Shown: positions 52,921-59,910, numbered from the stretch's first letter. The stretch is DNA of 64,000 nucleotides from Waterburya sp. (GCA_965217895.1 CBDCJV010000002.1:3328001-3392000), one strand, 5' to 3'. Made by a program: numbers and translations. The notes: a model not told the origin generated them from the letters alone.

Positions 52921-54118
52921 GGGAGCAAGTCAGTTTTGACAGAACAAATGAACTAAAGTGAATAAAAAAGTAGAAGGTAGAATAAAGCCAAAGTTAGCAG
53001 TGACAAAATAAAAATAAATGACTCCTGAAACAGAACAAAAGTTAGCGCAACACATAGAAGCTATTGCTGCTTTACTTTATCAAGAAACTGAAGCAGAACA
53101 AGTAGAGAGTCTAGGTAAAATAGAAGCGACAATTAGAGAACAAACTCTTGAATACATTACCCCTCAATTGGGCATTTTTTTATTCAGCAAACTACAGGAA
53201 CAAAAGCAGGAAGAGTAAGAAACATCAAGAGTATCATTGGAAAACTGCCAATTAGCGAAAAACAAGGTCATAGACTAAAAATAAAATCTCATCAAAGAAT
53301 TAGTCCTTATTTAACGGAATGCTGCCTCAGAGCTAGTGCCAATGTCTCTTATGAGAGTGCATCTCAAGATGTAGCAAGATACACAGGAATGATAGTTTCA
53401 GAGAAAACTCAACAGAGATTGGTTCATCGACATCAATTTAGGGAAGCTAACTGTGAAGCGAAAGTATCAGAGATTAGTGTTGACGGAGGAAAAGTACGTC
53501 TGAGAACGGAACGCAAAGGCCAATCCTGTATCTGGAGAGACTATAAAGCAGTCTGTATTGATTCACAATCAAGAATGGCATGGTTTCAGGAGAATGAAGA
53601 ACTAGTTAAAGGGGTCAATCAACAACCCTTTGATGTGTGTTGAATTGTGTGGCAGATGGTCATCAAGGAATTTGGAATCTAATGAACCAGTTCAATCGCG
53701 AAGGTGAAACTAGACAAATTCTAGACTGGTTTCATCTCGTAGAGAATCTTTATAAAGTCGGCGGTTCAAATAAACGCATCGAGCAAGGAAAAAGTCTTTT
53801 ATGGCAGGGAAAAGTTAATGAAACTTTAGCTTTATTTTCGCCTTTAAAAAAGAAACAAGCACAAAACTTTTGTACTTATTTAGAAAATCATCGCGATCGC
53901 ATTGTCAACTATGATTATTATCAAGCAGAAAATATTTGTGCCATTGCTTCAGGTGGGGTGGAGTCTACCGTTAAGCAGATAGACCGAAGACTAAAAATTT
54001 CAGGCGCGCAATGGAAAATTGAAAATGTACCACAAGTCTTAAAACATCGATGCGCCTATCTCAACAATACTCTTTTTACTCAGTAGTACTTATGTTCTTG
54101 CATAATTGACTTGCTCCC
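52921..54118 (+). mobile_element. ISKra4-family-like insertion sequence
   Basis: Terminal IRs GGGAGCAAGTCAGTTTTGACAGAACA / GGGAGCAAGTCAATTATGCAAGAACA (revcomp); transposase with DGGK, DGHQGIWN, DWFHL, SGGVESTVK. Confidence 0.85.
53018..54086 (+). pseudogene. transposase, frameshifted
   Basis: Three ORF pieces; slippery T7 run at 53175-53181 (probably programmed) plus a second frame break near 53637. Confidence 0.8.
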
Positions 54119-54963
54119 TTACTATTGGTCTAAATTTGTGATAGTGCAATTGTCCGTTGCTGCTCCCCAATTTCTCTTTGTAGTAAAAATTGCTCCAATT
54201 CAGCTCGATTTTTAAATGCTTGGACGATACTTTCTGGCAAAGAAAGTTTCCAAATACCAGCTTCTTCGATAGCATCAGCTGCAGCTAAATTAGCATTCTG
54301 TGAGATGCCTAAGGTTTCTGTTAGCTGTCGGCGTGCAATTTCCTGATTAGCCAGAGCAGTGACCAAATTTTGCTTAGATCTATCTAATTCCACTCTGGCT
54401 CTCAATACATCAAATTTAGTACCAACCCCTGCTTCAGTTAGAAGTTGAGCGTCTCTCAAAGTTCGAGTCGCATCTCTTACGGCTGCTGACTGAATTTCAA
54501 CTTGAGCGTCACCGTTCTGTAGAGCATAGTAATCCGTAGAAACTTGAAGGCGAGTATCCTCAACAGTTGTTGACAAATCTAATTCTGTAATATGCAGTTG
54601 CTTTTCGGCAGAGCGAATTGAAGCCCCTCTAAAACCACCGTCATAAATATTATACCTAAGATCCAAGCGGGGATTAAAATCAAACTTTTCGGCACTCATG
54701 CTTTGCAAAACAGCACCTTGCGGACTACTTGGTGCTATACTCGCTTGAGCAGCCTGTTCGGATACAGTATCTAAAAAACCGTTATTTTCATAGCTTAAGA
54801 TACTAGGACTTGTGCCGCTTCTAAAGTCTAAGGTAGGAAATAGTGCAGCTTTTTGTTGTCTTAAGGCGAATTGCGATCGCTTTATCCGAATCCTAGCTTC
54901 GATGATATTTTTGTTGTTCTTAAGTGATAGTTGTATTGCCTGTTTTATAGTAATGGATCGCAT
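54119..54963 (-). pseudogene. TolC-family outer membrane protein, truncated
   Basis: YNIYDGG, AGVGTKFDVLRA; extra T before the stop (QI-RPIV in the other frame), then IS end; second TolC repeat absent. Confidence 0.75.
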
Positions 54964-56698: not shown

Positions 56699-57706
56699 AT
56701 GGCTGTATCTACCAGGGTTAATGGAGTACTGAGTCCTGGTGCTTGTTTGGCAAGTGGGGAATATAGAATCAATAAACCTTTGGGACAAGGAGGCTTTGGC
56801 ATTACCTACCGAGGTATTGACACCAGATTAAATCGTGCCGTAGCGGTAAAAGAGTTTTTTCCCGAAGGCTGCTGGCGAGAGGGAGCAACGGTCGTATCCG
56901 CAGGTAAATGGAATTATGATACTTACAGCAATGCTAAACAAAAATTTCTTCTCGAAGGTCAAACTTTAGGACAGTTTAATCATGCGGGAATTGTTCAGGT
57001 TTTTTATTATTTTGAAGAAAACAACACCGCTTACATGGTGATGGAATATCTTCAGGGAAAAACCTTGGCGCAACTGCTCAAACAGCGTCAGGGCAAACTA
57101 CCCCAAGCAGAAGCTTTAAAATATATCGCCAAAATTAGCGCAGCCTTAGAAGTTTTACATCAGGCTCAATTTTTACATCGAGATATCAAGCCTGATAATA
57201 TTATGCTGACAAATGATGGCAGGGTCGTCTTAATTGATTTTGGCGCAGCTAAAGACTTCACCGCCAGCAGCACCGATAAATACTCGACGATGTTGACTCC
57301 TGGATATGCACCCCTAGAACAGTATGGACGTAGGCTTAAGTCTGGGGCATTCACAGATATGTATGCCCTAGGTTCAACTTTATATCATCTATTAACTGGA
57401 AAAGCTCCCGTTTCCGCCATTGAAAGAGCAGCAGGAGTTAAACTAAAAACTGTTAAAGAGATTACCCCCCAGGTTAGTTCTCATGTAAGTGAAGCGATCG
57501 CCAAATCAATGCTCATGGATGTAACCCAAAGATTACAGTCGGTAGGCGAATTTTTGGATTTATTGCGTCTAGACTCTGGTAAACTACCTGTCAAAATTAA
57601 CGCCAACAATTTTTATAGTGCAGTAAAAGATCCTTGGAACGCTTTTAATCATACAGAGGCTGTTTCTTCTGGGTCAGCTTATGCCAAAACCAGTAAATGG
57701 TTTTAG
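56699..57706 (+). CDS. Hanks-type Ser/Thr protein kinase (soluble)
   Basis: GQGGFG, VAVKE, HRDIKPDN, DFG, GYAPLEQ. Confidence 0.95.
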   Translation: MAVSTRVNGVLSPGACLASGEYRINKPLGQGGFGITYRGIDTRLNRAVAVKEFFPEGCWREGATVVSAGKWNYDTYSNAKQKFLLEGQTLGQFNHAGIVQVFYYFEENNTAYMVMEYLQGKTLAQLLKQRQGKLPQAEALKYIAKISAALEVLHQAQFLHRDIKPDNIMLTNDGRVVLIDFGAAKDFTASSTDKYSTMLTPGYAPLEQYGRRLKSGAFTDMYALGSTLYHLLTGKAPVSAIERAAGVKLKTVKEITPQVSSHVSEAIAKSMLMDVTQRLQSVGEFLDLLRLDSGKLPVKINANNFYSAVKDPWNAFNHTEAVSSGSAYAKTSKWF

Positions 57707-58689
57707 AGAACATGAAACTCGAAAATATCAAGATTGCCATGTTAGGCACGACTGGTGCGGGAAAAACCAGCTATATGCTGGGAATGTATGCAGTAATGCA
57801 AACGGGAATCCAAGGATTCACCCTCGCAGCCAAAGATATGGACTTAGATTTAGAATTAACCCAAAGATGGGAAAAATTAATTTCTGTTGAAGGAGAAGAC
57901 CGCTGGCCCACACCCAACGCAGCGACAATAGAATATTATAAGTTTGACTTTAGCTACGGCTATCGTCCTTTGATGGGATTTGAATGGTTAGATTATCGGG
58001 GTTTAGCATTAAGCGATCGCTCTACCGAGCAAGATGTATCAGACTTGGCTCAGTATATAACTGAATCTGACTGTTTATTTCTGTGTATCTCAGGGGAACA
58101 TTTAGTTAATGAAATTACTCCTAGCACCGTGCGGGAATTAAAAAGCGATCGCCTGAATCAGTTTATTCAGCAATATGTGAGCGTCAATAAAAATCCTGAC
58201 CCCCAAAAACCTTTTCCAATCGCGATCGTCATCACTAAATACGATCTTTGCCATCATCGAGAAAGAGATGACATTATTAACGACGTTAAAAAGCTTTTCC
58301 AGGCACTATTTACTCCCAATTCAGGCTGGCTAGTTATGGTTTGCCCTGTAAGTTTGGGACGAGAATTGTGTGACGACCCCGACGGAGGAAAAATTATTCC
58401 TGTCAATGCTCATTTGCCGATTATATTTGCTATTTATGCCCAGCTAAGAGCCAATAATTTAAAATTAAAAGCACAGAGAGAGCATCAAACCGTAGCTATT
58501 AACGCTCTCAAGCAGACAAGCCCACTCGTCCAGCTATTTAAGGCTTCAGAATTAAAAGAACAGACTAGCCAACTGCAAACCTCCGAAACCGAAATTATTG
58601 CTATTGAAGAGAACATGAAGCTTTTGTCTCAAGAATTACAGCAGGCTTCTTTGTACTTTAACGGTAGCGAGGTAACAGCCGATGTCTAA
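57697..58689 (+). CDS. TRAFAC-class P-loop GTPase with C-terminal coiled coil
   Basis: G1 GTTGAGKT, G3 DYRG, G4 TKYD; start may be ATG 57712. Confidence 0.8.
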   Translation: MVLENMKLENIKIAMLGTTGAGKTSYMLGMYAVMQTGIQGFTLAAKDMDLDLELTQRWEKLISVEGEDRWPTPNAATIEYYKFDFSYGYRPLMGFEWLDYRGLALSDRSTEQDVSDLAQYITESDCLFLCISGEHLVNEITPSTVRELKSDRLNQFIQQYVSVNKNPDPQKPFPIAIVITKYDLCHHRERDDIINDVKKLFQALFTPNSGWLVMVCPVSLGRELCDDPDGGKIIPVNAHLPIIFAIYAQLRANNLKLKAQREHQTVAINALKQTSPLVQLFKASELKEQTSQLQTSETEIIAIEENMKLLSQELQQASLYFNGSEVTADV

Positions 58690-59722
58690 ACAAGATTGGG
58701 CGGCAATTGTTTATGGACGTAGTTTTCATCTAGATTTTCGCTACATTACTGTTCCTCATGATTTTACTGCCAAAGACATCACCTGGGCATCAGCCCATAT
58801 CTTAGCCACAACTCATCAGGCTCATAACCTTGGGAATTATCCTCGTTGGTCATTGTTCAAAAATAATGACCACTGCATAGTTGGTGTTACCTGCATGGTG
58901 CGAGATTTGATTGGACAACTGGACAAAGATTCAATTGAAGTGATGGCAAAAGACGATCAGGGTAGACCCCTGTATATATTTGTTGGTTATGTTACTCAGC
59001 TATGTCAGCAAAAAAGCCTTTTGAATTTTCCTGCCTACACAGAAAAACACCTAGAGGGTTTTAAGTCTCTTTATCAACAAATAGAAAAAGTCTGGTTAGT
59101 TAAAGATTATGACCAGAAAAGTAGACAACCTCTGCTGAGTCAATATCAATCATTAAACTCTTCTGTAGAATTGATTCAGCCTGACAAAAAAATTGATTCT
59201 ATTCCCGAAATAAACAATTTTCTAAAACAGCCTGACAAAACATATTCCTGGTGCAACTCAAATCAGCAAAATAATCAGCTATGGATGGCTGCTGCTAAAT
59301 GTTCAGTCGAGACTTCTTTGTGCTTAAACATTAAAGCAAAGGTTATTTCCAATAGTCCCTTTTTGAATCAGACTATCACTCAACTAGATAGTTTCACCAT
59401 CAGCGATCGCATTTCCACCCAAAAACTCCGTTTAGCTTCGGCGCAACCGAATCATCAAAAGCAGGAATTAAATAAACAGCTTCAGACTCATCAGTCATTG
59501 CCCCAGATAATTTCAACCAGGGCAAAAGAAGATTTTGACCTAACTTTAAAACACGCTGCTAAAGTAACAACTGCCAGCCAAGAATTAATCAATAACTTTA
59601 CCAATCAATTTGACCAACCCTCAGAGATTACTCCCAAAACGGATAAATCTAGTGACATAGAGAATTTTGGCTTTAAAACTAAAATACAGTCACCCACTAC
59701 GGTTAAAAAAGATTGGTTTTGA
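58682..59722 (+). CDS. hypothetical GTPase-associated protein
   Basis: 346-aa ORF overlapping the GTPase stop; globular-looking N-terminus (IVYGRSFHLDFR, KDDQGRPLYIFVGY) and low-complexity tail. Confidence 0.75.
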   Translation: MSKQDWAAIVYGRSFHLDFRYITVPHDFTAKDITWASAHILATTHQAHNLGNYPRWSLFKNNDHCIVGVTCMVRDLIGQLDKDSIEVMAKDDQGRPLYIFVGYVTQLCQQKSLLNFPAYTEKHLEGFKSLYQQIEKVWLVKDYDQKSRQPLLSQYQSLNSSVELIQPDKKIDSIPEINNFLKQPDKTYSWCNSNQQNNQLWMAAAKCSVETSLCLNIKAKVISNSPFLNQTITQLDSFTISDRISTQKLRLASAQPNHQKQELNKQLQTHQSLPQIISTRAKEDFDLTLKHAAKVTTASQELINNFTNQFDQPSEITPKTDKSSDIENFGFKTKIQSPTTVKKDWF

Positions 59723-59745
59723 TGCTTAAATTTATGGTATCTGCT

Positions 59746-59877
59746 GTGACGGGGTGACAAGGTGACGGGAGTGTTTGGGGTGTTTGGAGTAGTGAGGTTT
59801 TTACTCTACCTCCACCATCTTCTCTATCTCCACTACTTTTCTACCTCTCCAAGTCCCCAAGTCCCCAAGTCTTCAAG
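59746..59877. repeat. short tandem repeats between convergent genes
   Basis: G-rich GTGAC/GTGTTTGG units then C-rich (CCAAGTCC)x~3. Confidence 0.6.
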
Positions 59878-59910
59878 CCTTACAGATCGATAAGCGCGTC
59901 ACATTAAATA

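Follow-up and report, generated by a model that had tools for sequence, protein, structure and literature searches.

A three-gene kinase, GTPase and partner cassette of Waterburya sp., fixed in its cyanobacterial family

The cassette and the closest described systems

The closest described relatives of the genes considered here are the predicted DO-GTPase/GAP1 conflict systems (PF19993, PF19975, PF20012-14), in which a GTPase is followed directly by a dedicated partner. DO-GTPases are defined by a conserved Walker B Glu, and the systems are described as nearly absent from cyanobacteria (PMC7159879, Kaur et al. 2020). No experiment on the predicted systems was found in the literature searched. 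We describe a related cassette in Waterburya sp., located in a stretch of 64,000 nucleotides (nt) (GCA_965217895.1, CBDCJV010000002.1:3328001-3392000), hereafter the window. It encodes a Hanks-type Ser/Thr kinase, a P-loop GTPase related to the DO-GTPases, and a third protein, ORF3 (Table 1). Like the DO-GTPase/GAP1 systems, it places the GTPase directly before a dedicated partner, the models of this partner and of GAP1 match the same folds, and larger relatives of the cassette share the themes of paired GTPases, Hsp70, zinc-ribbon kinases, PP2C, vWA and caspase-like genes (PMC7159879). In contrast to those systems, the GTPase lacks the Walker B Glu, carries Asn for the switch I Thr and stands alone; there is no GASH or FNIII gene and no effector, the partner has neither a GAP1-C region nor a Pfam GAP1 match, and the cassette is fixed in a cyanobacterial family and bears shared aromatic tails.

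We favor, tentatively and at somewhat less than an even chance, a reading in which the cassette is a defence-derived switch now fixed in one family, with the GTPase as its hub, the partner in control, terminal Trp-Phe (WF) tails tethering partner and kinase, and a host process as output. The shared terminal Trp-Phe, the change of switch I Thr to Asn and the missing Walker B Glu go beyond a preliminary description of the window; the family-wide fixation, the kinase as an add-on and the tail code are likewise new here.

The preliminary description had noted three overlapping or abutting open reading frames: an intact soluble kinase without a sensor domain, a GTPase with the motifs GTTGAGKT, DYRG and TKYD and a coiled-coil tail, and a protein of no known family. 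The frames proved real and intact, with an 8-nt overlap between GTPase and ORF3. At the kinase/GTPase junction there is a 10-nt overlap if the GTPase is read from its first ATG, or a 5-nt gap if it is read from the ATG at 57712; the latter start is probable because the length of most homologue records, 325 amino acids (aa), fits it. The kinase matched Pkinase (148.8 bits) and no other domain, its Gly loop, K51, E86, HRDIKPDN and DFG motifs were intact, and all three GTPase motifs were present. ORF3 had no match above cut-off in Pfam, NCBIfam or PADLOC. The C-terminal third of the GTPase, the coiled-coil tail of that description, reads by eye as a helical hairpin.

Among 17 aligned kinase sequences, five have Gln or Leu for the Arg of HRD. 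An N-terminal zinc ribbon found in some kinase orthologues is absent from the window kinase and retained in two family genomes (genus g156). No specific NCBIfam or PADLOC identity could be given to the kinase: the NCBIfam matches were all below cut-off, and the PADLOC matches, PD-T4-6 and Mad6, are generic ones that any Hanks kinase gives. At one locus (L041, G446) about 200 nt are inserted between kinase and GTPase.

Table 1. Positions of the cassette features in the window, and of an Hsp70 gene with a similar tail elsewhere in the same genome
Feature	Position	Strand	Remarks
Hanks-type Ser/Thr kinase ORF	56699-57706	+	335 aa; domain about 1-292, 43-residue tail
Kinase tail end and stop	57689-57706	+	terminal Trp-Phe in 45/45 loci
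DO-GTPase-related P-loop GTPase ORF	57697-58689	+	330 aa; probable start 57712
ORF3, full reading frame	58682-59722	+	346 aa
ORF3 residues 1-245	58682-59416	+	predicted longin-like domain (1-160) and small alpha/beta subdomain (AlphaFold2, Foldseek, VIA, conservation)
ORF3 tail	59417-59722	+	linker, one long helix (273-309), FGFK motif, terminal (D)WF
Hsp70	L126:937-3207 (G000:C2:98936)		757 aa, acidic tail ending WF; followed by J-domain-like gene

Distribution and origin

The co-conservation anticipated by the preliminary description was borne out: gene order is kept across genera, and of 46 loci long enough to show it, 45 have the kinase immediately upstream. Searches with an ORF3 profile gave a match in 57 of the 61 family genomes, counting 41 of the 44 that are near-complete, and each carries a single gene; where two matches appeared, in two genomes, they came from a split contig and from one long gene. 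Fifty-one of the 57 loci were examined, of which 45 had the order kinase-GTPase-ORF3, five ended at a contig edge, and one (G406) had its kinase deleted. The four family genomes without ORF3 contained no orthologous kinase or GTPase either. Outside the family, ORF3 was matched in 10 of 366 genomes of an order-wide sample. At E <= 1e-100, a kinase profile had matches in 12 of the 13 remaining family genomes and in none of 237 outside genomes, with G644 (see below) not among the matches listed. Ratios of non-synonymous to synonymous substitution rates (dN/dS) against three close relatives were 0.08-0.13 for the kinase domain, 0.08-0.15 for the GTPase, and 0.17-0.20 for ORF3 residues 1-245. Because gene order is conserved across genera and dN/dS is 0.08-0.20 for the three folded regions, the arrangement is, judged from these sequence comparisons, not a matter of chance. 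A mobile, patchy distribution was not seen within the family, patchy or plasmid-borne copies occurring only outside it, and the pattern reads as that of a fixed gene set rather than a defence island.

The preliminary description had treated the kinase as an integral part of the switch. This did not hold universally: besides its clean deletion in one family member, no kinase was detected in 42 divergent metagenome loci (the 45 lowest-ranked of 79 loci, minus three close ones). The lack of a kinase in most distant loci and in G406 is what would be expected if the three genes were co-transcribed by history only, without physical coupling, an explanation that we consider exceedingly improbable in view of their co-presence and co-absence, the conserved overlap and the shared invariant tails.

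Named homologue records come from Waterburya, Pleurocapsa and Chondrocystis (e.g. Chondrocystis sp. NIES-4102 and Waterburya agarophytonicola), which we take to be baeocyte-forming cyanobacteria (PMC8580901, PMC7381351). A universal baeocyte gene is ruled out, three near-complete genomes of one genus of the family being without the cassette.

Outside the family, the GTPase-partner pair belongs to larger loci, which add one or two GTPases and often have two partners, alongside Hsp70-like, double AAA, radical SAM-like, zinc-ribbon coiled-coil, CHAT, vWA, PP2C, C39 peptidase and dynamin genes; three plasmids carry multi-GTPase versions. Effector-like genes occur only in these distant relatives, and the window cassette has its three genes only. 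In a tree of 35 GTPases, with long outgroup branches and an unsure root, the 13 family sequences formed one clade (100/99), nested among those of multi-GTPase loci and sister (99/96) to that of G644, which shares the switch I Thr-to-Asn change. The G644 locus (L094, G644:C57), the closest relative of the cassette, has the order zinc-ribbon kinase, GTPase b1, partner, GTPase b2, GTPase a, partner; its kinase is of the same type and ends in WF, as do both partners, and two of its GTPases are extra. The order in the window is what remains of that in G644 once its three central genes and the effectors on its flanks are taken away. The cassette was thus likely cut down from a larger mobile multi-GTPase locus of defence type, the direction of change being our inference.

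Several of these relatives are worth recording in their own right. The large L094 locus also encodes a kinase-PP2C, a vWA protein, a fusion of CHAT with a GTPase, three further GTPases, and two zinc-ribbon kinases, of which one has TPR and CHAT. On an Anabaena sp. 90 plasmid (L125:8202-19552), Hsp70, two partners and GTPase b all end in WF and are followed by a C39 peptidase and two dynamin-family genes. A second cyanobacterial subfamily (L029-L032) has tandem GTPases and a partner with weak kinship to ORF3 (hhalign P=0.001), with some fusions to WD40, and at L033:5198-11906 a dynamin-like gene, a GTPase with the Walker B Glu, a small unknown gene and a kinase-FGE gene stand in a row.

The cassette may also still serve against phages or in programmed death, with kinase activation or GTPase-inflicted membrane damage stopping infected cells and fixation owed to the protection of cell packets. 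This we hold to be unlikely. Relatives do adjoin CHAT, NB-ARC-TPR, dynamin and C39 peptidase genes, some of them on plasmids, and lone kinases are known as abortive-infection effectors; in the family, however, the cassette is single-copy, with conserved order, low dN/dS and no variable part, its neighbors in the window are msrA-like and MFS genes rather than a defence island, and there was no viral contig match (0 of 53 pattern matches confirmed). The conflict-system label of the preliminary description thus survives as kinship with DO-GTPase/GAP1 systems, whereas the absent Walker B Glu, the lack of an effector and the fixed single copy tell against membership.

A scan for promoters and terminators found 16 promoter-like sites, compared with 8.8 +/- 2.9 in shuffles, but no convincing + strand promoter upstream of the cassette and no terminator after ORF3. 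Elsewhere in the window, two transposase-like fragments, recognized by eye, lie beside an apparently truncated TolC-like gene (53389-54963), and short tandem and purine/pyrimidine-biased repeats (59745-59880) separate ORF3 from the convergent MFS gene.

The partner protein and the GTPase

ORF3 was modelled with AlphaFold2 from 145 sequences, and fold searches used the model with the tail attached. The predicted local distance difference test (pLDDT) score was 88-98 per block over residues 1-240; the tail was loose. Foldseek returned TagF first (E 2e-4) and NPRL2 next. VIA gave TagF Z 6.5 over 175 aligned residues with a root-mean-square deviation (rmsd) of 5.5, followed by Loki longin (Z 5.6), Npr2 (4.9), and VAMP7 longin and DENND10 (4.7); FNIP2 was also among the longin/DENN matches, which overall had Z 4.5-5.6 and rmsd 3.6-5.1. 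In a second look with VIA, the top 13 rows were all TagF or longin-bearing chains. ORF3 is accordingly predicted to fold like TagF and longin/DENN domains, the match being modest. A search of the ESM Atlas led to GAP1-N clusters at 0.82-0.87. As a control, a canonical GAP1-N2+M protein (L110:3-869, from a GC-rich contig in a 7% contaminated bin, possibly mis-binned) was folded and searched likewise. Foldseek matched its model to TagF (E 8e-5), DENND1B (E 8e-4) and FLCN/FNIP2; VIA matched it to folliculin DENN (Z 9.2), DENND1A (Z 8.5 over 230 residues), Loki longin (8.3) and TagF (7.4), with N lying on longin and M on DENN. In these models the GAP1 control matches the same folds as ORF3, scoring higher. 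With 346 aa, ORF3 has no room for GAP1-C. Neither PF20012 nor PF20013 was matched in the window's genome (G000), nor was either among the 25 families listed first, out of 56, for 69 divergent members, and Pfam searches of 10 and of 69 ORF3 family members gave scattered single matches only. A PDB sequence match of ORF3 to PARP2 was rejected as low-complexity. At one locus (L083, G447) ORF3 is lengthened to 416 aa.

Conserved in ORF3 are G12-R13, D18-F19-R20, W35 and D91-x3-R95, with R95 kept in 142 of 145 sequences. In TagF, mutagenesis ties G8K9, D15F16, D30/W32 and D81/R85 to partner binding or function (PMC5995506), and an A. baylyi preprint likewise tested residues of the TagF loops. The near-invariant ORF3 residues G12/R13, D18/F19, W35 and D91/R95 parallel these by order and near spacing, not by superposition. 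TagF (PDB 9t0n, 6iz8, 2qnu) thus resembles ORF3 as its best structural match and in conserved-loop order, and resembles the cassette in its kinase-regulated setting; it differs in its type VI secretion system (T6SS) setting, its TagF_N domain, and its binding of Fha/Hcp rather than a GTPase. Pfam gave no TagF_N (PF09867) match for ORF3, and inspection found no T6SS gene between 48 and 64 kb in the window.

Arginine fingers of longins lie before the fifth strand. ORF3 resembles the longin/DENN regulators (NPRL2, FLCN-FNIP2, SMCR8-C9orf72, DENND1/10, Loki longin 8yqg) in its predicted longin topology, with a near-invariant Arg in the loop before that strand as a candidate finger, and the two partner paralogues encoded by large cassette relatives recall longin heterodimers. 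In those regulators, the arginine finger has been placed within the longin domain and the pocket is formed by two longin domains (PMC8213707, PMC12290439, bioRxiv 2020.04.15.042515). Unlike them, ORF3 has a small second subdomain and no GP motif, matches them at a Z of only 4.5-5.6, and would act on a GTPase that is not of the Ras family with a catalytic Gln. Longins have been traced to MglB-like domains in an account whose text, as consulted, mentions no bacterial DENN (PMC3521125); a 2026 preprint mentions unpublished associations of profilin-longin proteins with GTPases. The role of ORF3 as a plausible GTPase regulator, proposed in the preliminary description, gains support. A complex prediction for GTPase and ORF3 scored 0.02 and was given no weight either way.

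The GTPase matched DO-GTPase2 (PF19993) marginally, at 30.2 bits against a cut-off of 27 (model positions 3-192 of 226). G1, G3 (DxxG) and G4 ([NT]KxD) are intact, as in TRAFAC-type GTPases, and they and two switch arginines, R64 and R96, show no variation across 56 sequences. Walker B reads DYRG-L, with neither Glu nor Gln, in 118 of 120 near homologues and so lacks the Glu that defines DO-GTPases, where the canonical L110 protein has DTAGE. The switch I Thr position, assigned by alignment rather than structure, is Asn in 120 of 120 near homologues and Thr in outgroup orthologues. The protein thus looks like one member of a DO-GTPase pair yet falls outside the class, and turnover may need the partner or may be lost. 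PDB sequence matches of the GTPase profile were P-loop fragments only (best E 0.002). The invariant switch I Asn and the want of a Walker B Glu/Gln would also suit a GTP-bound or non-cycling scaffold, with ORF3 as a TagF-like adaptor and the trio as a kinase-targeting platform; TagF itself is an adaptor/inhibitor (PMC5995506, bioRxiv 10.64898/2025.12.08.692957). Since invariant G1, G3, G4, R64 and R96 point the other way, we regard the scaffold as quite unlikely.

Shared tails and the proposed switch

Two of the cassette proteins share their ending. Terminal Trp-Phe was found in the kinase at every locus with the full gene order (Table 1) and in the unrelated ORF3 at 51 of 51 loci and in 118 of 120 homologues. 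Each has a second aromatic patch upstream, a DPWxxF-type motif within the kinase tail (45 of 45 loci) and FGFK in ORF3 (110 of 120). The linker of the kinase tail (43 codons) has a dN/dS of 0.76-1.06, yet WF is invariant. Overlap with the GTPase start codon is ruled out as the cause of the kinase ending, since at 13 of 41 evaluable loci the Trp codon and the GTPase are read in different frames; a motif at the DNA level is unlikely, as both Phe codons and different stops occur.

In 8 large loci, 26 of the 59 genes of the cassettes carried a similar tail, compared with 0 of 53 flanking genes and a genome background of 59 in 3457. In the 42 metagenome loci, partners had such tails in 29 of 48 cases, second GTPases in 15 of 28, the remaining ORFs in 15 of 179, and orthologues of the window GTPase in 2 of 43, one of these a misclassified second GTPase. 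The tails of partners and second GTPases were more alike within than between loci (p=0.0006 by shuffles in 21 hand-deduplicated loci, a value that overstates the case for reasons given below). The window GTPase has no aromatic tail and is the natural candidate for the receptor because it alone is constantly tail-less; the globular region of ORF3 is the other candidate. In the monomer model the terminal WF of ORF3 has a pLDDT of about 51, and its placement is uninformative.

The same ending occurs in an Hsp70 of the window's genome, which with its J-domain-like neighbor we presume to be DnaK3-DnaJ3. Its tail, like those of the cassette, has terminal Trp-Phe after a second aromatic patch and a polar linker; unlike them, tails of the DnaK3 type contain a long acidic run and are present in genomes without the cassette. 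The C-terminus of DnaK3 has been linked to membrane binding (PMC7281324). Several unrelated proteins of the genome (G000:C2:1437986, 2609768, 2184291 and others) end in an acidic run and Trp, which suggests a wider cyanobacterial terminal motif. The same three-part switch could bear WF tails that are host targeting signals shared with DnaK3, for the thylakoid membrane or a common host receptor, with no internal docking. We consider this rather unlikely: tail style varies between loci and is shared within them (WF, PWxL, basic ends), and the kinase tail has no acidic run.

In the switch that we prefer, the longin/DENN-like partner would bind the switch regions of the GTPase through its GR..DF and D-x3-R loops and set the nucleotide state, with R95 as candidate finger. 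The shared WF tails would dock both kinase and partner at a single pocket, which most likely belongs to the GTPase, as a docking code read inside the system. The tethered, sensor-less kinase would phosphorylate GTPase or partner and tune the cycle, as an add-on rather than core. With the effectors gone, output would be a host process at a membrane, for example a stress or cell-division checkpoint, not direct killing.

A number of observations weigh against this reconstruction. The GTPase lacks both the switch I Thr and a catalytic Gln/Glu and so may not hydrolyse GTP. The fold scores of ORF3, below Z 8 with rmsd 4.3-5.5 A, are by the tool's own guidance possibly those of a common arrangement; inspection found no GP motif, reported for GAP-type longins (PMC12290439), in its first hairpin, and its alignment with the canonical GAP1 profile, colinear over 192 columns (score 20.3), was not significant, two of 30 shuffles scoring as high. 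The loops of TagF act on T6SS proteins, not on a GTPase (PMC5995506, bioRxiv 10.64898/2025.12.08.692957). In G406 (L074; genome 81% complete) the kinase is cleanly deleted. As for the tails, exact identity of the last two residues within loci (4 of 21, p=0.066) was not significant, and p values are overstated by a tail pattern and cassette borders that were set after seeing the data and by the relatedness of the loci. WF endings are not rarer than chance in the window's genome (4 of 4239 ORFs, 2.3 expected); only the conservation of the ending is informative. Finally, a DnaK3-like Hsp70 with an acidic WF/WL tail is present in the same genome and in five of five genomes without an ORF3 match, which makes a host-wide receptor or membrane role an alternative.

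A bolder version, which we think distinctly improbable, holds that a kinase-GTPase-longin/DENN module was co-opted from mobile conflict systems into a core switch of the major baeocyte-forming cyanobacteria, where it would gate multiple fission or its membrane remodelling; its assembly would follow an aromatic C-terminal code that is specific to each locus and that the GTPase reads, and R95 would be a true longin arginine finger, making the module a bacterial counterpart of the GTPase-activating proteins (GAPs) GATOR1, FLCN and SMCR8. No literature on the cassette, its tails or a GAP1-DENN link was found in a search that was thin for subscription papers.

The cassette offers a predicted GTPase-GAP1 system in its smallest soluble form, with three proteins of < 350 aa and homologues in named isolates. 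It bears on whether bacteria use longin/DENN folds as GTPase regulators, and hence on the origin of eukaryotic GAPs as well as GEFs (guanine nucleotide exchange factors), and its shared tails give easy access to the question of how variable parts are recruited in such systems. Its fixation in one family points to the rare case in which a conflict module has turned to lineage-specific signalling.

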